A stretch of 64,000 nt of DNA from Candidatus Moanibacter sp. Lineage in GTDB: Bacteria > Verrucomicrobiota > Verrucomicrobiia > Opitutales > UBA2987. Positions within the stretch are counted from its first letter, which is position 1. Each line of letters begins with the position of its first letter. Positions 26,709-39,938 of the stretch are shown piece by piece. Below the pieces are notes generated by a model. The model saw nothing but the letters and a program-made list of their open reading frames with translations. It did no database searches and was not told the DNA's origin. A program made the translations under genes and the position numbers. The stretch is from NCBI GenBank assembly GCA_965215885.1, contig CBDCEW010000105.1, forward strand, positions 288,001-352,000. The letters run 5' to 3'.

Positions 26709-27680
26709 TTCTAATTGCTTGTTTGTATGTTTCGAAAAGAATACCCAAATCGCTTCCGAAGCATCAAAATCGCGACAGGTATTACCAACGATGCGAACTG
26801 GAAGATACTGTCTTGTCCCCGGCCAGGTGTGTCCACCGCCGATGACCTTGTATAAGACAACAGACACGCCAGTTTTATTATTTGTCCATTCAGTTCGTTC
26901 GACCGTTGAACCGTCGTGTTTCTCGATGTCAGGGAGACCCGTAATCACACCTTTAGCGCCGATTCCATTGTGCCTGAGCCAAAATTCTATTGTATCATCC
27001 GTCGAGATTACCTTGCCTCTGCTCGGCCGTCTACGGAGCTTAGCTAACCGTGGAAATAGCTGAGGTGTGACTTCACCTCCTTCATAGGGTACAAAGGGAT
27101 CCTGTGTGCCGTTGATGATCAACACTGAAACCTGCCTCTTTGGTTTTGCCTCGGCCAGTGGCTCAGGAATCTGGGCAGTCAACGAGGCTACCGCTGCGAA
27201 ATGCTGCCCCAACTCGATGGCTAGACGCTGAGAAAACATCCCGCCGTTCGAGATGCCGGTAGCGTAAACTCGTGTTTTGTCGATAGAATACTTTCTTTCG
27301 AGTCCTCCGATGAGCCCTTCTATCCAAGCAACATCGTTGATCGTCGCATCGTGGTCCCGGAACTTCTCGCTATGTCTCCCATCGTTCCAGTGTTTGTCGA
27401 TAGATTGAGGATAAATTGCAATGAAACCATGCTTCTCAGATAACATGCTAAAACCTGAGAAACCGGCAATCTGGCGGGCATCTCCCCCTCCTCCATGAAA
27501 CACAATTACAACTGGTGCAGCCAATTCTTCTTGATAAGTAGAAGGAAGGTGAACGAAATACTCTCGCCTGAAATCTCCTGATTGCATCACTTCCCTAAGA
27601 AGCTCTGCTGATAAACACTCGCTTGCCAGCAAGAGTAGAAGGACTCCTGGAATGATTTGGTGTGATTTGTAAATCTTCAC
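26679..27680 (-). CDS. Secreted PHB-depolymerase/LpqC-family esterase (cassette)
   Basis: Signal peptide, VFHGGGG, WNDG, ATGISNGGM, NGTQDP, GGGHTWPG. Confidence 0.9.
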   Translation of the reverse strand: MKIYKSHQIIPGVLLLLLASECLSAELLREVMQSGDFRREYFVHLPSTYQEELAAPVVIVFHGGGGDARQIAGFSGFSMLSEKHGFIAIYPQSIDKHWNDGRHSEKFRDHDATINDVAWIEGLIGGLERKYSIDKTRVYATGISNGGMFSQRLAIELGQHFAAVASLTAQIPEPLAEAKPKRQVSVLIINGTQDPFVPYEGGEVTPQLFPRLAKLRRRPSRGKVISTDDTIEFWLRHNGIGAKGVITGLPDIEKHDGSTVERTEWTNNKTGVSVVLYKVIGGGHTWPGTRQYLPVRIVGNTCRDFDASEAIWVFFSKHTNKQLEAQNGGEKHS

Positions 27681-27750
27681 GATTGCACTTTACCCGTTTG
27701 CCCAACGTTTGAGGACAGGTACGCGATTTATCGCGTTTCCTGCACCGGTT

Positions 27751-27961
27751 GTGGGCCGGGCAGATCCGACTGCTCGATGGTGATGTTAACATCAGAAAGG
27801 AAATGACACATGAAGTAAACAAAGTCCAGACCCAGCCCGATCAGCTGACCTGTCCGACGTAGCCTTGGCGAAGTTGGGACCGCCACTTACGGCATGCCAC
27901 CGTCCCGCTGGGTAGGATCCTTCAGGGCGAAGACGGACCCCTACATCCCGCTCAGCGGGAT
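27751..27961 (+). mobile_element. Group II intron remnant, copy A (~210 nt), in attC 27700-27750
   Basis: GTGGGCCGGGCAG start directly after attC ...CCGGTT; first ~90 nt match copies B-D; partial DV ACCGCCACTTACGG; 3' end uncertain. Confidence 0.7.
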
Positions 27962-28832
27962 CACGGCCTAAGCCGTTCGAGTGGTGGTCTAGAAGTGGCG
28001 TCCTTTTACCGTTGGATTGTAGGGCTTTAGTTCCAATTCCCTCGAGTCGAAAAGTAATGCGCTGAATTTTCTCGACAGCGATCGGCTTGCCTTCACTCCA
28101 GGCAGGACGGTAGATCGATTGTAAGACGGCTTTCAACGCTGGATCCTCAAATTCGGTATGCGATGAACTCTTAACCGCAATTCTTGCGACCGTCCCTAAC
28201 TCGTTAATTCGAATATGTATTGCAACGGATCCCTCAACTCCCTTCCTCTTTAATTCGAATGGATACACAGGCATTGGCATAAATAATCGTCTCGGTTCCA
28301 GAATTTCCTCTTGTCTAAGAATGTATTCATCGATCACTGGTTTCGTGTTGATGCTACCAAATTTGACTTTACTCAATAGCGCGTGAGTGACGACGTCTGC
28401 CATTGAAATGCGTTCTCTGATTTCATGGTCCTTAAAGTAGCTAACCAGAGGTGAATCAGATTCTGATAGCCAATTTTGAGCGACCCAATCGGAGATACAG
28501 AGAAACTCCATTCCGAATCGAACAAATCGATAATATTCGAGTTCTGAAAATCGCATTTCGCCGGGAAAAAATCGACTATTCGTTTTCCAATACCTGAGAT
28601 CCTTAAGAAGGGAGCGCGGAAGAGATCTCCGAAGCTGGCGCACGGCTTCGGTGATATTCCGAGGAATTTCGTTCTTCAATGCCGGAGGTTCTGCAGAGAC
28701 CATTGATAACTCGAAACAGCCGTCTCCGACGTTGGAGTGCACCGCGTTTGGGATGACAGTGGAGCACAGGAAAATCATCAGTGCTTTTCGCAACCACCTT
28801 CCGGGTCGACTTCCTCGTGCTACATCTTGCAT
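27792..28832 (-). CDS. TonB C-terminal domain protein (cassette); frame reads through the attC
   Basis: PVYPFELKRKGVEGSV...INELG.V...SS...FEDPALKAV...YRPA..EGKP; inverse core GTTGGAT at 28011-28017. Confidence 0.75.
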   Translation of the reverse strand: MQDVARGSRPGRWLRKALMIFLCSTVIPNAVHSNVGDGCFELSMVSAEPPALKNEIPRNITEAVRQLRRSLPRSLLKDLRYWKTNSRFFPGEMRFSELEYYRFVRFGMEFLCISDWVAQNWLSESDSPLVSYFKDHEIRERISMADVVTHALLSKVKFGSINTKPVIDEYILRQEEILEPRRLFMPMPVYPFELKRKGVEGSVAIHIRINELGTVARIAVKSSSHTEFEDPALKAVLQSIYRPAWSEGKPIAVEKIQRITFRLEGIGTKALQSNGKRTPLLDHHSNGLGRDPAERDVGVRLRPEGSYPAGRWHAVSGGPNFAKATSDRSADRAGSGLCLLHVSFPF

Positions 28833-28901
28833 CGACTCTTGAAAATCCACCGTCAAAGCGCACTCGCGGAGGCGTAAGCCGGAGTTGAGTGCCGCCTTGT
28901 T

Positions 28902-31486
28902 GTGTGCCGGGCAGATCCGACTGCTCGATGGTAATGTTAACATCAGAAAGGAAATGACACAGGAGGTAAACAAAGTCCAGAACCAGCCCGATGGAGGCGA
29001 AGGTTAGCCAATGGCAAGAGTATCACAGCGATGTGGGCTCGGAGGAAGCCGGAGGCAAAGACGCGTGCTGACGAACAGGTATGCCCCGCACCGGAAACGG
29101 TGGAGGGCAGGCAGATGAGGCGGGGGAAGACTGGGACGAATCTGCAACACAAGATGAAGTCCTCTATCCATCAGAGAGTTGACCCACGTAGATCTGATCC
29201 CGCTGAGCGCATACGCGTTAACTTAAGGAGAAGAAACAAGAGAGGAAATCAAGTCGAGAACGCTTTTCATAGGTGCAGTGTTTGGGGATTTGTTTGAGCC
29301 ATCGGGGGATGATCTGATCTTTGGGAAGGTGAGAGAGGATGAAGAAGTAGGGAGCAAAGAAGCCAAACCAGTAGGAGAATTTAAGGATACTCAGAGGAGA
29401 GGACAAACTGGTATTCGAATAGTGTCTAAGGGGACCATAGACGAAGTTGAGTAAGTGGGTAATGAGGATGAGACGGGCGTAGATAAGAAGCTCAACCTGG
29501 TAGGGAGTAGTCTCTTTGACCTGACCGAGATTAAGATGTTGCTTAAAGGCCTTGAAGAGAATTTCGATGCGCCATCCCGCTCAGCGGGACCGTAAAAGCT
29601 CAGAATCTGCTTAGGGCTAAAGTCTTTCTGATGGAGGTTGGTAATAAAGATTTGGAAACCGAGAAGGAAGCTGGTGCGGCTGGTATATCGAAGTCTATTG
29701 TCGCGGTTTTTTCTATGCTTGTGGCGGCGTTTATGGGCCACCTTCTGAGGGAGTTTGACGGCGATCAGACGAACCGGAAGCTTGGCTTTTTTACCCACCC
29801 GAACGGGCATATCGAGAAGCTTTTGGCCACGTAAAAGTTTGCGTAGATCGAGCTCTTCATCGCCTTCGTTGGCTAAAAGGCAAGTGCCGGTTTTCAAACG
29901 ACTCACAAAGAAGCAGCCGCGCTGATCGAGTTGCTTAAAGAGGTCGAGGACAAAATAGCCTAAGTCGCGCAGGATCAGGTCGTTGGGTTGAGCAACAGCG
30001 AGAATGTCCTTGGAAGCAGCCTGATCGTTTTTTCGGAAGCTTGAGAGGCTGAAGTCCACGAAGGATTCATTGCGCAAATCGTAATAAGCCTGGATCTTAA
30101 GTTGAGCCTGCTTGGAGCCTGTCTGATTGGAGGCTCCGGGGAAGAAGGGGGCGAGGGCCTTAGGCAAGCCAATCGAAGTGCTGTCGACAATGAGAACCCG
30201 TTCAAAGCTCCTCATGCAATTTGGAACAGCTCTGCCCACAGGCCCATAAGCTTTAAGTTCCAGAAGCTTCAGGAGCACTAAGGTCATAAAAGCGGTGGCT
30301 TTTTTGGCGCACTTTTGGACCGCTTGTCTGGAAATGGTGCGGTTGGCTAAGAATCCAATAAGCTCGGCTTCTTTGCCAAGGGACAAGGCCCCCTTAGAAG
30401 CCATCGCCAGCAAAGCCAAAACAAAGTTCAGTGGGGAAATCTTGCGCGATTTCCTCTCTCTGAAACCACTCTGTTTAGCGAGGGCTGTGAGGTTCAACTT
30501 ACGGAAGGTTTGACGGATACAATCAGCTTTTTTATACTTTGTATCCGAAGGATAAATCCTATATATGAACGAATGTACAGTATAAAATGCTGCCAAAGTG
30601 AAAAAAATGGGGGTAGACGGTAAAAGTAGAGAAGATAACCCGGTCAAAATGCACTCGCTCAACTGCGAATTTCCTCACCGCTGTGGTCGAAACGAAGCAA
30701 ATAGAAAAGGGCGAACAAATGGAGTGGAACCTCGAGGATAGAGACACCCTCATACTCCGCCGCAAAATACCTCGCAAGTCTTTGAATCTGACTAAGTTGC
30801 GAAAATAAGGTTGACGCGTATGCGCTCAGCGGGATGCGTCGAAAGTAGTCGGAGTAACCCCGGGAGAGCCGCTATGTCTTCTTTGTTTGAGGAGTGAGCA
30901 ACCCGCAAGGGGAGCCCAGCGCATAGCGGCAGTCAGCCGAGGGCATAAGAGTCGTAGAGGAAACGAGCCGGGAGTAGTCGCCGATCCACGGCGTGCCGGG
31001 ATCCGACGAAGAATCCGGAGGACTCACCCCGACAAAGGCCCGAACGGTGCCTTGTGCCGAAGGGCACAGGTAAATGAGAGTGGCAAGTAGGAAGAGCGAC
31101 TAATGAACTCATTGCAGCAGTCCAGCTCAGAAGAGTTTGTTGCGTCGCGAATATCCCAAAGCCCGACAGGACGGATCCGGCTCTTGGAGAGTATCCCGGA
31201 GCGGAAGAACATGCAGCGCGCGCTGCACTTTGCCCGCTACGTCGAGGACTGTGTCATCTTCGTCCGAAGCGAGCGGGGAGGGAAACGGGTGATGGAATTT
31301 CCCGTCATTCGGGCTCGTCTTCCCCTGGACCCGATCCTGCCCTGATCAGCCGAAGCGTCTCCCCGCCACTGATCAGCCGAACCGCCACTTACGGCATGCC
31401 ACGGCGAAGCCCTTCAGGGCGAAGACGGGACCCGTACGAGTGGTGGTGTGGGAGGGGCGCCCCGCGAGGGGCGTCCCTCCCCCGAT
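28902..31486 (+). mobile_element. Miniature group IIC-attC intron, copy B, interrupted by an IS4-family element
   Basis: GTGTGC 5' end after attC GTT; ...CCCGAT 3' end followed by GGGC, restoring GTTGGGC; RT remnant LHFARYVEDC. Confidence 0.88.
29210..30822 (-). mobile_element. IS4-family insertion sequence; transposase frameshifted near 29580
   Basis: IRs CATACGCGTTAAC / GTTGACGCGTATG; ORF 29391-30662 with IVDSTSI, LRDLGYF, FFVSR; Y..RW.IE..FK signature broken by a hairpin. Confidence 0.88.
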
Positions 31487-31963
31487 GGGCGGTTTTCGTT
31501 TGTTTCTGAAGCGAATTGGTTTCGGTCCAAACCATAGTGATGTCTTCTTTTCCGGAAATCGATCATTCAAATACGATAGAAAACACTTCCAATCCTTTGA
31601 CGTAAATCCGACCGGCACAATTTGGAATGACTGCTGCCCCTCGAATTTTATGAGGAAAGTAACCAGCCCTTTTCCAATCGAACTATATGCTTCAAGCTGC
31701 GACCAAGAGTACTCACCCGATCCTGGAAATAGCATTCGAATCGTAATCTTCTCCTCATTCCACAATATCTCTTTCGGAGTAAACATAATCAAAACACCTA
31801 CGGCTAAAAACGAACTCACCATCGCAGCCGTAAGAATCAAATCATCGATGCGGATATTCTTACCTTGGATGTAAGGTAAAAGTCCCGTGAGTATTGCCCA
31901 CAGTACGAAGAAGCCGAAAAATGCCTTTAGAAATGCACGTAGGTAGTTTGGCTTCAGCATCAT
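31373..31963 (-). CDS. Hypothetical membrane protein (cassette); 3' end runs into the intron
   Basis: Two TM helices then a soluble domain; ATG follows core site 31977. Confidence 0.65.
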   Translation of the reverse strand: MMLKPNYLRAFLKAFFGFFVLWAILTGLLPYIQGKNIRIDDLILTAAMVSSFLAVGVLIMFTPKEILWNEEKITIRMLFPGSGEYSWSQLEAYSSIGKGLVTFLIKFEGQQSFQIVPVGFTSKDWKCFLSYLNDRFPEKKTSLWFGPKPIRFRNKRKPPIGGGTPLAGRPSHTTTRTGPVFALKGFAVACRKWRFG

Positions 31964-31970
31964 GATTTTC

Positions 31971-32061
31971 GCCCAACGCTCAAGTGGAGGCATGCCGGGC
32001 CAATCGGTAACACTTGGAACCGGTGGCGCAAACCGGCATTGCCTCGCACGCCTTGTTCGCA
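31971..32061 (-). other. attC site (91 bp)
   Basis: GCCCAAC...GTTCGCA; stem AGGCATGCCGG / CCGGCATTGCCT; similar to attC 34028-34117. Confidence 0.85.
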
Positions 32062-32316
32062 TCAGATATGGTCTGCATAGGTAACATCGACGACGTAGAT
32101 TCTCTTCACTGCGTGATCCACATAGTATAGAACCGCGTACGCATTTAAGATAACACCGTGCAGGTTTCCCTCGTCGCCTCGATCCGAAAAATCGGGATCC
32201 TTGAACGGATCTCTTCCGATCCGCTCAATTTCGAAAAGAAGCTTTGTCCCTTCTTTATTGCGTTCCGCGGAAAGAAATCCGATCGCCTTTACCGAGATAA
32301 AGACCTCGTAGTCCAC
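32062..32316 (-). CDS. Putative RelE/ParE-like toxin
   Basis: 84 aa; YEVFIS..A...IGRDPF...YAVLYYVDHAVKRIYVV; directly downstream of a small partner gene. Confidence 0.55.
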   Translation of the reverse strand: MDYEVFISVKAIGFLSAERNKEGTKLLFEIERIGRDPFKDPDFSDRGDEGNLHGVILNAYAVLYYVDHAVKRIYVVDVTYADHI

Positions 32317-32320
32317 AGTC

Positions 32321-32518
32321 TTATTCTTCCGCGATCTGTTTCTTCAGCTTGTCAAGGCTGACCCAATGATCAGGATCCTTGTCGTCCAGACGCCGAGACA
32401 ATTCCTTCCGATAATCCTCGTTCTCCCGCAGACGCCGAAGAACGAGATGAGACATTAGTCTCTTTCGATCAATCGGCTCCAACTTGTCGACTTCGCTGAT
32501 GATCTCAGTGATGCCCAT
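32321..32518 (-). CDS. Putative antitoxin (addiction-module-like)
   Basis: 65 aa helical protein ending WVSLDKLK; 4 bp from the toxin-like gene. Confidence 0.55.
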   Translation of the reverse strand: MGITEIISEVDKLEPIDRKRLMSHLVLRRLRENEDYRKELSRRLDDKDPDHWVSLDKLKKQIAEE

Positions 32519-32580
32519 TGCGATTCAATGCTATTTCAGTCCTCTGACCTGTCGAGCCGAAATTCCGCGCGCGCCAGCGC

Positions 32581-32644
32581 GCGGAACGTCTGAGCTCTCA
32601 TGCGAAGGGCGTTAGCCCAAGTTATGAGCAGCATCTTGTTATGC
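32581..32644 (-). other. attC site (64 bp)
   Basis: GCGGAAC...GTTATGC with GCTCTCAT/ATGAGC stem. Confidence 0.8.
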
Positions 32645-33433
32645 TGACATTTCACCTCTGAGATCGATCTCGCAGTTAACCATATAAGATATCACACGGA
32701 AGCCAATCTTTTCCAGGATCGGTTGGCTCGTGGGCATTGCTTCGACACACAAGAAACGAACTTCTCTGTCAATCGCTTCTTGGGCTCTTACCCCCACAAG
32801 TGCAGAATAAAATCCCTGATTACGATAATCGGGGTGCGTTGATCCGCCCAACAGATAGGAAAACTGACTTTCCGGATGAAAGGTACAGCGCGCACAACTG
32901 ACCGGCTGGTTATTCTTATGAGCAATGTAAACGCTCATATAGTCTGGATGACTGCTCAAGAAAAATTCCATGAACTTGGTTAACTTGTCGAACGGCTGAT
33001 TCCAAACAGCCTCTGAAACACTTCGGAATTTATGGAGATGTTGAGGGTCGGTGATTCGTCGAATGTCGTGTTTTGAGACCTTTAGCAATTGCTCGGGTCG
33101 ATCTTCCAGATCGACAACCATTACAGCGCAACGCGATGAGATTGAAAATCCAGTTCGCTTCAGAACGTCAAGTAGGTTACCAGGGGGTTCGTGTTCGTAA
33201 ACTTTCCATTCGAGTGTACGGTTTAAACTGCGCTCATAGTTGATCTCTCGCTCAATCCTTTTCTCCAACTCGGACGGTGAAATACAAGAGAACTTGATCT
33301 TGGCTTCATCTTCCATGCGTGAAAGGTGCCTTACAATATCAGGCGTCGCCTCTCTTCGCATGTGCGGATAAACCACCTCACGACGGTCGAGATCGAAATA
33401 GTCAAGAACCTCTTCACGTTCTAAGGTGCTCAT
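32639..33433 (-). CDS. GNAT N-acetyltransferase (cassette)
   Basis: LLGGSTHPDYRNQGFYSALV...SQPILEKIGF. Confidence 0.88.
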   Translation of the reverse strand: MSTLEREEVLDYFDLDRREVVYPHMRREATPDIVRHLSRMEDEAKIKFSCISPSELEKRIEREINYERSLNRTLEWKVYEHEPPGNLLDVLKRTGFSISSRCAVMVVDLEDRPEQLLKVSKHDIRRITDPQHLHKFRSVSEAVWNQPFDKLTKFMEFFLSSHPDYMSVYIAHKNNQPVSCARCTFHPESQFSYLLGGSTHPDYRNQGFYSALVGVRAQEAIDREVRFLCVEAMPTSQPILEKIGFRVISYMVNCEIDLRGEMSA

Positions 33434-33454
33434 ACGCGTTTTTGGCTAAATGAA

Positions 33455-33518
33455 GCATAACGTTCAAGCTCTGGCGCGGAGGCGCATGCCGACGTTGTCC
33501 AGAAGCGCCGTGTTCGCC
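33455..33518 (-). other. attC site (64 bp)
   Basis: GCATAAC...GTTCGCC. Confidence 0.82.
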
Positions 33519-33522
33519 GTCT

Positions 33523-33783
33523 CTATTGGGCTACGAGCGGGTACTTCTCCGGTTCGTCCAGGCTCTCCACGTCCAGATCGACATCCAGTGCTTCCCAAAA
33601 TAGGTGAAAATCATGGATGAGGCGTACGTCGCAAATCTGCTCTACCGTGGCCTTTCTGAACCACGGGAAATGGTCGTAATCGAGGAAATACTCTCTCCCT
33701 TGCAGGAATATCCAAATTCCGTGTGGAGAAATATTCTGAATCTCAACCCCCGAAGTGGCTTTTCCAACTGTCTCTGATTTCAT
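33523..33783 (-). CDS. DUF2442 protein (putative antitoxin)
   Basis: NISPHGIWI...YFL.Y..FPWFRKAT...LFWEALDVDL. Confidence 0.82.
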   Translation of the reverse strand: MKSETVGKATSGVEIQNISPHGIWIFLQGREYFLDYDHFPWFRKATVEQICDVRLIHDFHLFWEALDVDLDVESLDEPEKYPLVAQ

Positions 33784-33982
33784 CGGCTCTCTCCTCCACA
33801 ATTTCTTGCAGTTCCCGAAGCTCCTTGTCCTTAAGTCCCTTATTTACTGCGAGTTCAATTTCAGGTTCAATCCAGTATTTCGCCTCTCCGTCCGGCGAAT
33901 ACACATGTACATGCATTCGATCCTCCTCTCGGGAGAAGAAATAGAATCGGTAACTTCCGATTCGAAATATCGTCGGACTCAT
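33743..33982 (-). CDS. DUF4160 protein (putative toxin)
   Basis: MSPTIFRIGSYRFYFFSREEDRMHVHV...EAKYWIEP...W..HF. Confidence 0.85.
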   Translation of the reverse strand: MSPTIFRIGSYRFYFFSREEDRMHVHVYSPDGEAKYWIEPEIELAVNKGLKDKELRELQEIVEERADEIRDSWKSHFGG

Positions 33983-34027
33983 GTAAATAGCCTATCCGCC
34001 GGGTCGTCTGTCTCAATGTTATATTTC

Positions 34028-34117
34028 GGCGAACGCTGGAACGCAGGCATGCCGGCCAATTGGCTTCACTCTGAAACGGCGGCACAAACCGGCATTGCCT
34101 GGCGTGATTTGTTAGGT
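34028..34117 (-). other. attC site (90 bp)
   Basis: GGCGAAC...GTTAGGT; stem CAGGCATGCCGG / CCGGCATTGCCTG. Confidence 0.87.
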
Positions 34118-34372
34118 GCTTGTTTTTTTCTTTTCGATCGCTTCTTTTCCAATGATCAACCAACCCCTACGAGTCGAGTATATCAGGATCGCGGTTAAAA
34201 ATAGGGGCAGGCCCGTGATGTAAACGAGATAGGCACTCAATGTCCTAATTTTTTCCCATTCTGTCGGCTCAAACATCAAAATGGCCACCCCCATCGCGAA
34301 AATGCAGACATAGAGGCCGAAAAACAGATTCTCCGCTGGCGAAACATGTCTGTGTTCTGTTCCGGACTTCAT
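34112..34372 (-). CDS. Small two-TM hypothetical protein (cassette)
   Basis: Fills the cassette; stop codon lies in the inverse core ACCTAAC. Confidence 0.7.
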   Translation of the reverse strand: MKSGTEHRHVSPAENLFFGLYVCIFAMGVAILMFEPTEWEKIRTLSAYLVYITGLPLFLTAILIYSTRRGWLIIGKEAIEKKKTST

Positions 34373-34383
34373 GGAATCTCGCT

Positions 34384-34442
34384 ACCTAACGTTAAAGCGC
34401 TAAGACGGCGGCACCTGCCGCCGTTCTAAGGAGCGTCTGGTT
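34384..34442 (-). other. attC site split by tandem introns (last 4 nt ATAC at 35900-35903)
   Basis: ACCTAAC...ACGGCGGCA-cc-TGCCGCCGT...GGTT|intron. Confidence 0.85.
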
Positions 34443-35357
34443 GTGTGCCGGGCAGGACCGACTGCTTAATGGTGAAGTTAACGTCAGAAGGAAATGACAC
34501 ATGAAGTAAACAAAGTCCAGACCCAGCCCGATGGAGGCGAAGGGTAGCCGATGGCAAGAGTATCGCAGCGATGAGGGCTCGAAGGAAGCTGGAGGCAAAG
34601 ACGCGTGCTGACGAACAGGTATGCCCCGCACCGGAAACGGTGGAGGGCAGGCAGATGAGGCGAGGGAAGACTGGGACGAGCCTGCAACACAAGATGAAGT
34701 CCTCTATCCATCAGAGAGTTGACCCGCGTATATCTGACGGTGGTGCGTCGAAAGTAGTCGGAATGACCCCGGGAGAGCCGCTATGTCTCCTGATTTTCAG
34801 GAGTGAGCAACCCGCAAGGGAAGCCTACCGCATAGGGGCAGTCAGCAGCCTGTCCTCCGAAGCTCGGAGAGCGAAGGACGGGAGGGCATAAGAGTCGTAG
34901 GAAACGAGCCGGGAGTAGTCGCCGACGGGAAACCCGTCCGACGACGAATCCGGAGGACTCACCCCGACAAAGGCCCGAACGGTGCCTGTGTCGAAGGGCA
35001 CAGGTAAATGAGAGTGGCAAGTAGGAAGAGCGACTAATGAACTCATTGCAGCAGTCCAGCTCAGAAGAGTTTGTTGCGTCGCGAATATCCAAAAGCCCGA
35101 CAGGACGGATCCGGCTCCTGGAGAGTATCCCGGAGCGGAAGAACATGCAGCACGCGCTGCACTTTGCCCGCTACGTCGACGACTGTGTCATCTTCGTCCG
35201 AAGCGAGCGAGCAGGGAAACGGGTAATGAAATTTCCAGTCATTCGGGAGCGTCTTCCCCTGGACCCGATCCTGCCTGATCAGCCGAACCGCCACTTACGG
35301 ACCCGTACGAGTGGTGGTGTGGGAGGGGCGCCCCGCGAGGGGCGTCCCTATCCCGAT
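34443..35357 (+). mobile_element. Miniature group IIC-attC intron, copy C (915 nt); DV and DVI look intact
   Basis: GTGTG 5' end; DV GAACCGCCACTTACGGACCCGTACGAGTGGTGGTGTG; DVI GGGGCGCCCCGCGAGGGGCGTCCCTATCCC with bulged A; AT 3' end; RT remnant RYVDDC. Confidence 0.92.
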
Positions 35358-35899
35358 GTGTGCCGGGCAGGACCGACTGCTTAATGGTGAAGTTAACGTC
35401 AGAAGGAAATGACACATGAAGTAAACAAAGTCCAGACCCAGCCCGATGGAGGCGAAGGGTAGCCGATGGCAAGAAGCATCCCACGGGAGTGGGATGCTAC
35501 GAAGAATCCGGAGGACTCACCCCGACAAAGGCCCGAACGGTGCCTGTGCCGAATGGCACAGGTAAATGAGAGTGGCAAGTAGGAAGAGCGACTAATGAAC
35601 TCATTGCAGCAGTCCAGCTCAGAAGAGTTTGTTGCGTCGCGAGTATCCAAAAGCCCGACAGGACGGATCCGGTTCCTGGAGAGTATCCCGGAGCGGAAGA
35701 ACATGCAGCGCGCGCTGCACTTTGCCCGCTACGTCGAGGACTGTGTCATCTTCGTCCGAAGCGAGCGGGGAGGGAAACGGGTGATGAATTCCCATCATTC
35801 GGGCTCGTCTTCCCCTGGACCCGATCCTGCCTGAGCAGCCGAACCGCCACTTACGGACCCGTACGAGTGGTGGTGTGGGAGGGGCGTCCCTATCCCGAT
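35358..35899 (+). mobile_element. Miniature group IIC-attC intron, copy D (542 nt), head-to-tail with copy C
   Basis: Begins GTGTGCCGGG right after CCCGAT of copy C; further internal deletion near 35475; DVI shortened. Confidence 0.9.
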
Positions 35900-35930
35900 A
35901 TACCTCCAATTCGGTAGCCCTGTTCTGAAA

Positions 35931-36745
35931 TCAATCCCGATTAGCCTCGATCCACCCTACAGCGAAGTCGACTAGTTCGCATTGTGGAAAGAGAACCGAT
36001 ACAGCGTAGCCCACTTTGCCTCGAACGACTTGGTTTGATGCACTTTCGTATGCCTGCCCAATCTGTGGAAAGTCATCCGAGCATGAGTCAATGTCCGAAA
36101 ACTCGGTCCAATAGGTGGCTCCGTCTCGGGAGATGGGCGCTCCATGCCTTACTATTTGTTTGGATGCGAAGCTTGCCCGAAACTCCGCCAGATGAAGCGA
36201 GGAATTGGAATCGTGTCCCACACCGATCAAAAGAACGCTTCCTCCACTTTCGTAGACCCTCGCCAGCGGCGATTGCTCGCCAAACGAACTTTCCAAAGCG
36301 TGGTCGCTGGTTACAAAGTCAGCTCTTGGACCGGAAGCAGCAAATGAAACGTGGGGGTGGTTGCTGCGCACCACGCTGTCCGCGCCTCGAAAGCACTCAG
36401 GGATTGCGCCCATACCCCGTGTGGGAGTGAACGGTCAAACGCCGGCATTGTTCGACGTATTGTTGGCCACCAAGTCGGATCGACTGGAGGATTACTCCAT
36501 CCTGCAGGATCGGTTAGGCCGCCCGAGTGAGTGGGCATTACCAATGTTCCCTTTGGTCCAAGTGCGCTTAGGAGAGCGTTGACGACCGCCACGGGACCGC
36601 CGGCGACCCAGCCGATCGAGCTGAGAGACGAGTGAACCAGCAAGGTCATACCATCCGTTACTCCCAGTTGGGTCAAGTCGCACACGAGGCGGTCCTGAAT
36701 GACCGGACCCGCGATCGAGTTACTGATGACATCTCGCTCAGTCAC
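35931..36745 (-). pseudogene. AAC(3)/YokD-family acetyltransferase, frameshifted near 36432
   Basis: LVHSSLSSIGWVAGG, GTLVMPTHS, then in another frame TPTRGMGAIPE, RSNHPHVSF, LIGVGHDSNSSLHLAE. Confidence 0.88.
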
Positions 36746-36767
36746 TGAAGACCCTTTAATCCTGTAC

Positions 36768-36830
36768 GTATAACGATCGGTCTCACACGCGGCGGCGTTA
36801 GCCGGCGTTGTGTGAAGACACTGGTTATGC
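36768..36830 (-). other. attC site (63 bp)
   Basis: GTATAAC...GTTATGC; stem GTCTCACAC / GTGTGAAGAC. Confidence 0.87.
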
Positions 36831-37136
36831 CTTCGCCGTGGCCATAGAATGAACCTCCGATGCAATCTTCTTTCCGACCTCCCGCTCGGCCACTTCGAGA
36901 TCGTGTTCTCCTTGAAGCCCAACCCAGAATTCCGCCGTAGTCCCAAAGTATCTTGAGAGCCGCAAGGCGGTTTCAGCCGTAATCGATCGACGACCTTTTA
37001 CGATTTCAGTGATGCGCGAGGCCGGAATTCCGGTTTCGCGTGCCAACTGAGCTTGGGTTAGGCCCATCGGCTTGATGAACTCTTCGAGGAGGATCTCCCC
37101 CGGAGGAATAGTTGGTAAGCGATTTTTCTGCTTCAT
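36825..37136 (-). CDS. higA: HigA antitoxin (HTH-XRE)
   Basis: PPGEILLEEFIKPMGLTQ..LA...RITEIVKGRRSITAETALRL..YFGT..EFW.GLQ. Confidence 0.93.
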   Translation of the reverse strand: MKQKNRLPTIPPGEILLEEFIKPMGLTQAQLARETGIPASRITEIVKGRRSITAETALRLSRYFGTTAEFWVGLQGEHDLEVAEREVGKKIASEVHSMATAKA

Positions 37137-39124: not shown

Positions 39125-39938
39125 ATGAAAATCGTGCATTTCCCGCGCTGGGCGGAGATCCTGGAGCGTTCTGATGTCGACTCCCGTACGAGAGAATTCT
39201 ATCTCATTACCATCCGCTGGTATCTATCATGGTGTACGAAGGCAGGGCTCGCAGCAACTAATCGATCCGCCCAGGAATTTGTCGAGTGGGCTGCTCGCGA
39301 GAGATCCTCATCTGAAAGGACCGTAGCGCGATGGAAAGAGGCAATTCGCTGGTTTTTCGCCAACGGTGAGCGAAGGGAGATTCCAACCGATGGATTTGGA
39401 GCGGGGTCAGGTCGTTGTTCGATGCGGGAAGGGCGACAAAGACCGGATAGCTCCAATGCTAAAAGTTCTGGAAAAGGAGCTTAGAACGCATATGGATCAA
39501 CTGGCTGAGACGTTCGAATCTGATCGGGCGAGGCATCTTCCAAGAGTCTTCCTTCCGGGCGGCCTTGAGCGCAAATTCCCAAGGGCAGGGATCGAATGGG
39601 CATGGCAGTGGTTCTGGCCCAGCCGGGAACTCAGCATCGACTCAAGGAGTGGGATTAAGCGCCGGCACCATGTGCAACCGAACCACAATCAAGCCGCAAT
39701 CAAGCGTGCGGCACAAAATGCCGGCATCGGGAAGAGAGTGACCAGCCATGCCCTCCGCCACTCATTCGCCACGCACCTGTTCGAAGGCGGGGTGGATATC
39801 CGCACCGTTCAGGATTTATTGGGCCATGCGCATATCGAAACCACGCAGATCTATCTGCATGTAATGACTAAGCCCGGTGCGGGTAGTCTCAGCCCCTTGG
39901 ATCTGATGGCGTATTGTGCCGAAGGGAAAGAAATGTAA
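39125..39938 (+). pseudogene. intI: Integron integrase with internal deletion/frameshift
   Basis: GKGDKDR, integron-specific insert [12 protein letters not shown]...WAWQWFWPS...[32 protein letters not shown]; box I (G.R) absent; N-terminal part in another frame. Confidence 0.92.

Follow-up and report, generated by a model that had tools for sequence, protein, structure and literature searches.

The 64,000-nt stretch analyzed here, called the window (contig CBDCEW010000105.1 of Candidatus Moanibacter sp.; G000:C105:288001-352000, G000 being the source genome), carries an array of small gene cassettes on the - strand that runs from about 39 kb downwards, and three attC sites of this array are interrupted by four homologous elements, namely, A, B, and C together with D. 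All coordinates are window positions. The elements lie on the + strand and open with GTG(T/G)GCCGGG; A, B, and C start immediately 3' of GTT (27748-27750, 28899-28901, and 34440-34442, respectively), and D starts in tandem at the first base after the end of C. These features, described in an earlier note made from the sequence alone, were read directly. All four are derivatives of one lineage of group IIC introns that targets attC sites, and B, C, and D keep the same remnant of a reverse transcriptase (RT) gene. Below, DI to DVI are the intron domains, ORF is open reading frame, IS is insertion sequence, and J1 and J2 are two deletion junctions.

27751..28011, + strand: element A, a 261-nt stub delimited by alignment and BLAST to B, C, and D; 3' boundary approximate
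28902..29197, + strand: 5' portion of element B, from its first base through DI as far as the IS; 93% identity to C 1-295
29198..30835, - strand: IS within DI of B, with a DDE_Tnp_1 transposase ORF at 29391-30662 (Pfam PF01609, 61 bits)
30836..31486, + strand: element B, 3' part, from the end of DI to DIII, DIV with ORF remnant 31103-31345, DV, and DVI
34443..35357, + strand: element C, a 915-nt RT-deleted intron with all six domains
35037..35276, + strand: ORF remnant of C, with J1 at ~35157-35161 and J2 at ~35231/35232
35287..35318, + strand: domain V of C (32 nt, the short form); its fold has a 2-nt bulge and a CGC triad including a G-U pair
35319..35357, + strand: J5/6 plus domain VI of C; in the fold, an A bulges out 8 nt before the 3' end
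35358..35899, + strand: element D, in tandem behind C, delimited by BLAST and alignments

The cassettes are divided by hairpin-forming sites that read RYYYAAC ... (T/G)GTT|NNNN on the + strand. The attC sites were identified by eye from core 7-mers and hairpin folds; a strict pattern scan (complementary 7-mers plus fold) returned six sites in the window and missed obvious ones, and the sites were then read directly.

27700..27750, + strand (bottom strand as read on +): attC before element A, ending in GTT; hairpin fold -10.5 kcal/mol, z -2.7
28845..28901, + strand: attC before element B, ending in TTGTT; weak fold, -9.5 kcal/mol, z -0.8
34385..34442, + strand: attC before element C, ending in TGGTT; fold -12.3 kcal/mol, z -2.0
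31971..31977, + strand: core-site 7-mer GCCCAAC, 5' boundary of the cassette whose attC holds B; complementary to the 7-mer restored by removal of B
36768..36774, + strand: core-site 7-mer GTATAAC at the 5' end of the cassette whose attC is interrupted by C and D; complement of the 7-mer that removal of C plus D restores

The restored 7-mers, GTTGGGC after removal of B and GTTATAC after removal of C plus D, are those named in the earlier note. For A, GTT plus GGAT would give a 7-mer matching the next core site (28845-28851) at six of seven bases. The attC before A has about 40 to 56 nt in common with the attC sites before two further copies in G000, E and F.

Structure and condition of the four elements

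The covariance model RF02001 (group-II-D1D4-3) matched C over its full length (34562-34762, 59.3 bits, gathering threshold 32) and B in two pieces (29022-29108 and 29112-29196, 34 and 29.6 bits); eight intact full-length relatives from public genomes scored 55 to 96 bits, and the matched region is absent from A and D in the alignment. The DV-DVI model RF00029 gave no match in 27000-36600 at E <= 1. Because it matched just two of the eight intact relatives, its silence in the window is not evidence against an intron; both RT-less relatives tested were missed as well. RF01998 gave near-threshold matches just 5' of the ORF in seven of the eight intact relatives and none in B, C, or D. The covariance models to which the earlier note had looked thus answered in part, RF02001 for C and B and RF00029 nowhere in the window, and its claims of a group IIC derivation and of the published position and orientation of attC-specific group IIC (IIC-attC) introns held.

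The intact relatives are 2,041 to 2,158 nt long, lie after ..GTT, and share with C the first ten bases and the last few. They have the same 32-nt DV and a DVI with bulged A, and the short DV form was present in all 16 full-length relatives examined. DV and DVI of C fold exactly as in one intact relative, L101, and the 5' end of C is GTGTG. The ribozyme before the ORF start measures 594 nt in C versus 597 to 704 nt in the intact relatives, and of 175 alignment columns invariant among all eight, C keeps 163; nine of its 12 departures are common to all four RT-less copies examined. Among these four copies, differences fall at 41 of 996 relative-invariant positions versus 225 of 2,197 others (pairwise counts, which are not independent). 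The 5' part of DIV is 96 to 100% identical among copies versus 87 to 93% for the RT5/C-terminal remnant. In the full-length relatives, the intron-encoded protein (IEP) has 453 to 455 amino acids and Pfam RVT_1 and GIIM only, i.e., RT and maturase (X) domains and no endonuclease domain. In one relative, L100, an intron lies immediately behind another intron, and tandem insertion such as that of C and D is typical of the lineage. The best plasmid matches were ltrA genes of 56 to 57% identity; in the search for a named IIC-attC relative on plasmids, the Aeromonas match inspected was found between IS256 copies, not in an integron, and was rejected.

Only C of the four looks like a complete ribozyme. 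D consists of the 5' 117 nt, a hairpin (35475-35498), the 3' half of DIII, DIV with the ORF remnant 35595-35834, and short forms of DV and DVI. C positions 118 to about 495 are missing from it, among them the region matched by RF02001 and the loop with AACA, the candidate exon-binding site 1 (EBS1); the loss of most of DI to DIII including this loop predicts that D cannot work as a ribozyme. The length of B, 2,585 nt (28902-31486), is owed solely to the 1.64-kb IS insertion. B also has about 35 nt inserted into the terminal loop of DV, and its DVI folds as fully paired, with no bulged A; its sequence indicates inactivation by the IS, plus the DV insert and the lost branch-site bulge. In A, the 5' 91 nt are joined to the 3' end of DIV, followed by a long-insert DV with a 17-nt palindrome (27945-27961) and a degenerate short DVI. 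The breakpoint of A lies in a 7-nt repeat and differs in the alignment from the junctions of B, C, and D. The tail of A aligns with the degenerate short DVI, which puts its 3' end at about 28011 rather than at about 27961, where the earlier note had set it. Further stubs with other breakpoints occur at attC-like sites in G000, namely, E (contig C80) and F (contig C2). The window would thus hold one plausibly active member, C, and three dead derivatives.

Several inserts accompany the elements. The IS of B, present in at least 30 copies of 95 to 97% identity in G000, terminates in the two halves of the 17-nt palindrome that stands alone in A; a slightly altered form of the palindrome occurs inside the IS copy of B (29574-29589), and a contig from sequencing run X3 connects 29206 with 30829, i.e., an IS-less form of B. 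The palindrome may be a target or a footprint of the IS. The DV-loop insert of about 35 nt ("long DV") was found in B (31393-31427), A (27893-27937), G000 contigs C80 and C2, loci L034 and L036 of a second genome, G006, and locus L066 of a third, G063. It is present in about half of the copies across all three genomes and in none of the 16 full-length relatives, and it folds as an extension of the upper DV helix. Small ATCCC...GGGAT hairpins with varied inner sequence are located at the DIII tip and in other loops (D 35475-35498, B 30963-30990, and G063 L066). In L066, two near-identical hairpins about 190 nt apart form direct repeats, and such pairs could drive internal deletions like that of D.

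Deletion junctions shared within and between genomes

The ORF remnants of B, C, and D (ORFs 31103-31345, 35037-35384, and 35595-35834) retain about 75 to 80 codons. In BLASTP against the intact 455-aa RT P0001, the remnant of C aligns with residues 1 to 59, with an 18-codon gap, and with residues 255 to 282; it keeps P0001 residues 1 to 7, 26 to 59, and about 258 to 282 and the last few codons out of frame. Three internal deletions, the 18-codon N-terminal gap, J1, and J2, have thus removed about 380 of about 455 codons. All three are identical in the alignments of B, C, and D. J1 lies within a 5-nt repeat. J2 has at most 1 to 2 nt of microhomology, as judged against the ORF-bearing relics G006 L034 and L035a and G000 copy F, which still carry parental sequence on either side of the junction. 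No Pfam match was obtained for the ORF remnant, and no match in the window to TIGR04416 (group II RT/maturase); the three TIGR04416 matches of G000 are all on other contigs. Because the junctions are identical at different attC sites, the deletion predates the separation of B, C, and D.

The same form was found in two other genomes. Among 41 relatives searched, strong matches were obtained in one, G006 (8.3 Mb, three contigs), which belongs to the same family and another genus. The second carrier, found among 301 genomes of the order, is G063 (7.2 Mb, three contigs) from another family, with at least 42 BLAST pieces. In the DIV-DVI alignment, J1 is present in all 13 rows and J2 in 12; the remaining row, L069, diverges ahead of J2. 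The 12 rows with both junctions comprise three copies from G000, three from G006, and six from G063. Among 19 distinct 5' junctions in the three genomes, the element follows GTT in 18 and GGT in one, copy F; a twentieth copy, G006 L036b, was left out of this count for its ambiguous 5' end. When the flanks of 22 copies were compared all against all by BLAST, an extended flank was common to one pair only (G063 L075 and L086). The remaining matches were attC-like stretches of 39 to 87 nt and those of A and B, which physically adjoin.

Over element positions 540 to 842, the copies are 90 to 97% identical across genomes (96.4% for G063 L056 versus B; 97.0% for B versus D), compared with 73 to 75% for the rpoB genes of the hosts and 44 to 46% at third codon positions of rpoB. 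In the tree, the copies did not group by genome: one clade (support 99/98) joined three G006 copies and one G063 copy, and the G063 copies fell into at least two supported groups. Because the copies are so much more alike than rpoB and are not sorted by genome, the already deleted element is far younger than the divergence of its hosts and has moved between them. Its horizontal sharing among at least three hosts is the best-supported reading of these comparisons.

Other large inserts and ORF-less introns were noted during these searches. Three RT-less copies of G063 at different attC sites (G063:C3, approximately 5388404-5391490, 5411831-5414863, and 5422927-5425943) have about 2.27 kb of additional DNA inserted between element positions 135 and 243. 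In G006, the copy L037 (G006:C2:606400-609182) is split in DVI by an insert of about 1.9 kb with an ORF on the opposite strand, probably another IS. A further genome from another family, G020, has small ORF-less introns of class-C type (L021, L027, and L029) whose DV shares the stem sequence but has a GAGC loop and whose DIV is AT-rich; these form a second, separate ORF-less lineage.

Proposed spread in trans and its alternatives

On balance, we lean toward a non-autonomous family of class IIC introns that lost the RT and spread over attC sites with the protein supplied in trans. The ancestral introns would reverse-splice into the bottom strand of attC hairpins after (T/G)GTT, opposite to cassette transcription. 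One of them would have lost most of its RT/maturase codons by the three internal deletions, while the ribozyme stayed entire and DIV retained its 5' part together with some 40 initial codons, the region that harbors the maturase binding site in other group II introns. The resulting RT-less intron of about 0.9 kb would then have reached new attC sites within and between genomes, with the RT/maturase provided by a full-length relative. The copies also recombine, so that deletion states are shuffled between sites. The spread of the deleted form is strengthened by the same junctions in nine further copies at unrelated sites in two other genomes. Spread as RNA after the deletion is also favored by intact ends in all copies, by the scarcity of differences at ribozyme-invariant columns, by the stronger conservation of the 5' part of DIV than of the functionless RT5/C-terminal remnant, and by the experimentally tested TeI3 precedent described below. 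We infer from these comparisons both the RNA-mediated spread after the deletion and the helper, and the mobilization of RT-less copies in trans has the same standing.

A helper was searched for with the relic RT of G006 and with P0124 (448 aa), a full-length member of the P0001 cluster. Intact cognate-cluster RTs of 453 to 455 aa were found on long contigs of public assemblies, and hundreds of RTs at 73 to 79% identity on short metagenome contigs. In G000, G006, and G063, the matches were just fragments (72 to 90% identity) and unrelated RTs (31 to 39%), and no intact cognate RT was present; with genome completeness of 90%, 96%, and 97%, respectively, an RT may have been overlooked in G000 and less likely so in G006 and G063. 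G000 does have two intact group II RTs (contigs C92 and C37), which reside in other ribozyme types, one positive for RF00029 without RF02001 and one for RF02005.

This absence of a cognate RT weighs against spread in trans, as do the following observations. A 271-nt query spanning J1 and J2 found no match in 400 other genomes sampled from the phylum (G006 and G063 lie outside this sample), and the J1-junction pattern had no true copy in metagenome contigs; the sole locus with the pattern was rejected as a chance match within a MotA/ExbB-like gene. No pair of empty and filled sites with a clear direction and no donor copy of C elsewhere in the G000 assembly were found. Over their first 117 nt, C and D show 100% identity in BLAST versus about 95% over the remainder, which points to conversion. 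The D-type junction, ribozyme-dead, occurs at three attC sites with different ORF states, so that recombination or conversion does shift deletions between sites without retrohoming. Finally, one strain allele without C, described below, could equally be a deletion across the 117-nt repeat.

Recombination is also apparent in the copies at large, for the deletion states fail the four-gamete test. The D-type 5' deletion accompanies a near-full ORF in G006 L034 (which has one frameshift and a 3' deletion in an 8-nt repeat) and is combined with J1 and J2 in D and G006 L036a; J1 and J2 are also seen together with full ribozymes in C, L037, and L038. The long and short forms of DV and of DVI and a spacer insert of about 30 nt are likewise shuffled. 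Because deletion states occur in all combinations, the copies recombine, by gene conversion between sites or by template switching in reverse transcription.

These are the observations from which decay followed by gene conversion draws its strength, the main rival explanation, which we consider unlikely but serious. Full-length introns would have been inserted independently, and the deletions of one copy would have been copied to resident introns, including by exchange between incoming cassettes and residents, so that the RT-less form never retrohomed. The combinations of deletion states, the likeness of C and D over the 5' 117 nt, the three sites of D-type copies unable to insert themselves, and the lack of a helper RT in any host all fit this course. 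It requires, however, that about 11 sites in three genomes each once held a full-length copy and that all of these were converted, and the deleted allele still had to cross between hosts with 74% identical rpoB. Moreover, ORF-bearing relics number about six (F, L034, L035a, L036b, L089, and L189), fewer than the 12 copies with both junctions, and the substitutions avoid ribozyme-invariant columns, which is unexpected for dead DNA.

Less likely than decay and conversion is an orphan parasite of integrons resembling a short interspersed nuclear element (SINE), an intron of about 0.9 kb carried between distant bacteria on cassettes and re-inserting into single-stranded attC hairpins without a cognate RT; its own ribozyme would reverse-splice, and a non-cognate RT or host polymerases would make the copy. 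Recurrent independent deletion at hot spots, giving shared junctions without shared ancestry, is very improbable. Repeats do lie at some breakpoints, such as the 8 nt common to the X domain and DV in copy E and G006 L034, the 7 nt in A, and the 5 nt at J1, yet J2 is identical in 12 copies without usable microhomology, the 18-codon gap is present in the same copies as J1 and J2, and nine columns in all four RT-less copies differ from all eight intact relatives.

The assembly was checked against Logan contigs of public runs. The attC|C joint is bridged by an X3 contig (71 nt into C), and contigs of run X1 bridge attC|B (31 nt), the 3' end of B and its flank (38 nt), and the 3' end of D and its flank (43 nt); the bridging contigs of independent runs show 0 to 2 differences. 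For the C|D joint, the only backing besides the assembly is a contig of run X6, 97% alike, which reaches 30 nt into the D side. X1 has C-specific contigs at the depth of the flank, and in X5, from a near-identical strain of another study, one contig of depth 3.5 joins the attC flank straight to D with 0 differences and no C-specific cover. C is accordingly polymorphic among near-identical strains. Parts uncovered in X5 and X6 are not evidence of absence, save for the X5 contig joining across C. Runs X6 to X15 contain about a quarter of the sampled words of 33900-36300, which permits no inference on habitat or spread. An artifact, i.e., repeat-induced misassembly or the segmental duplication of one intron-bearing cassette, is least probable of all, for although G000 is a metagenome-assembled genome of 105 contigs with 5.5% contamination, the C|D joint lies between near-identical repeats without a bridging contig from the same strain, and X5 joins attC directly to D, the attC|C, B|flank, and D|flank joints are bridged by the independent contigs, the flanks of the copies are unrelated, and the same element types occur in two genomes of three contigs each.

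With the family of RT-less introns spreading in trans retained as the favored reading, the observations of the earlier note are confirmed with corrections, and its interpretation, a miniature, RT-deleted intron in three attC sites, is supported in part. The common ORF remnant, the identical junctions in the aligned copies, and a deletion older than the separation of B, C, and D stand, the last on common junctions at different sites and a J2 without useful microhomology, and no intact RT lies in the window. The RT-deleted form occupies two of the three sites, those of B and of C with D, and the third, A, has its own breakpoint; differing breakpoints, raised as a sign of independent decay, therefore apply to A and not to B, C, and D. 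The proposed mobility is weakened by the ribozyme-dead D, the IS in B, and the lack of a cognate helper in three genomes. Intact parents exist on public contigs and in none of G000, G006, and G063, and more copies were found, nine in G006 and G063, with no true one in metagenome contigs. Segmental duplication was not borne out by the flanks.

Integron context and comparison with known introns

The neighborhood comprises the cassette array and a broken integrase gene.

Array on the - strand: cassettes with a HigB/HigA pair, a DUF4160/DUF2442 pair, a GNAT acetyltransferase, an AAC(3)-family acetyltransferase in two frames, and an esterase
39125..39938, + strand: broken integron integrase gene, divergent from the cassettes and beside the array

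The broken integrase gene (intI) consists of an N-terminal SAM-like ORF (39125-39484) and a catalytic ORF (39366-39938), with Pfam PF13495 and PF00589; its match to TIGR02249 reached 212.6 bits over model positions 139 to 314 only (cut-off 265). An intact intI (432 bits) is located elsewhere in G000, on contig C100. The AAC(3)-family N-acetyltransferase gene (Pfam PF02522, 35931-36946) belongs to the cassette whose attC carries C and D, and its overlapping frames (35931-36413 and 36311-36946) indicate a frameshift or a sequencing error. Outward promoters of sigma-70 type were not enriched, with three promoter-like sites in 27600-36100 versus 5.8 expected and none within A, C, or D, and no inference on cassette expression was drawn.

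Published IIC-attC introns insert at TTGT/T in the attC bottom strand, against the direction of cassette transcription (PMC7923331, PMC3001079). The present elements resemble S.ma.I2 and its relatives in the bottom-strand attC TTGT/T site behind a hairpin and in the class-C ribozyme (PMC3001079, PMC7923331). The IEP of their full-length relatives, with RT and maturase domains and no endonuclease domain, is a further likeness. They differ in that the members described in these sources encode their own RT/maturase, of which about 380 of about 455 codons are gone here. Degenerate intron pieces in attC arrays or in clusters of attC sites lacking integrases (CALINs), such as UHB.F1 and H.ha.F1/F2, are known from Sonbol and Siam 2021 (PMC7923331), and A, D, E, and F are of this sort; those relics appear there as single and 5'-truncated, in contrast to an internally deleted form with complete ends and ribozyme at many sites in three genomes.

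No description of an internally RT-deleted IIC-attC family was found in a full-text literature search that reached mostly titles and the beginnings of abstracts, with most subscription literature outside it. A review warns that surveys keyed on RT or DV could overlook other such introns (PMC4424553), and a recent large survey used RF00029 for DV/DVI (PMC8919778). The attC family would fit this gap, having no RT and a DV/DVI that escapes RF00029 in the window, as in six of eight intact relatives.

The closest parallel is the set of 17 ORF-less TeI3 introns of Thermosynechococcus elongatus, which are presented in Mohr et al. 2010 (PMC2882425) as having one breakpoint and being served by IEPs in trans. 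Common to both are many copies with the same ORF-deletion breakpoints, N- and C-terminal remnants, and a second smaller deletion, and in TeI3 the copies likewise sit at different sites, with proper exon pairing, from which one deletion followed by proliferation with IEPs in trans was inferred (PMC2882425). In contrast, TeI3 is a chloroplast-like IIB intron homing to specific sequences and is accompanied by six potentially active IEP genes in the same genome (PMC2882425), whereas the present introns are of class IIC, occupy integron attC hairpins, and have a cognate IEP in none of three hosts. Unlike TeI3 as portrayed in that source, the RT-less form here is common to hosts of different families, and TeI3 mobility was shown in assays (PMC2882425), whereas here it is deduced from sequence. 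If the present introns are mobile, a further tier of parasites would live in integron attC sites, one that could block cassettes or rearrange them, give homology for cassette recombination, and move between hosts along with the cassettes. The family would then be the class IIC counterpart of the Thermosynechococcus case, which was used to argue for the dependence of intron families on a shared splicing and mobility factor.

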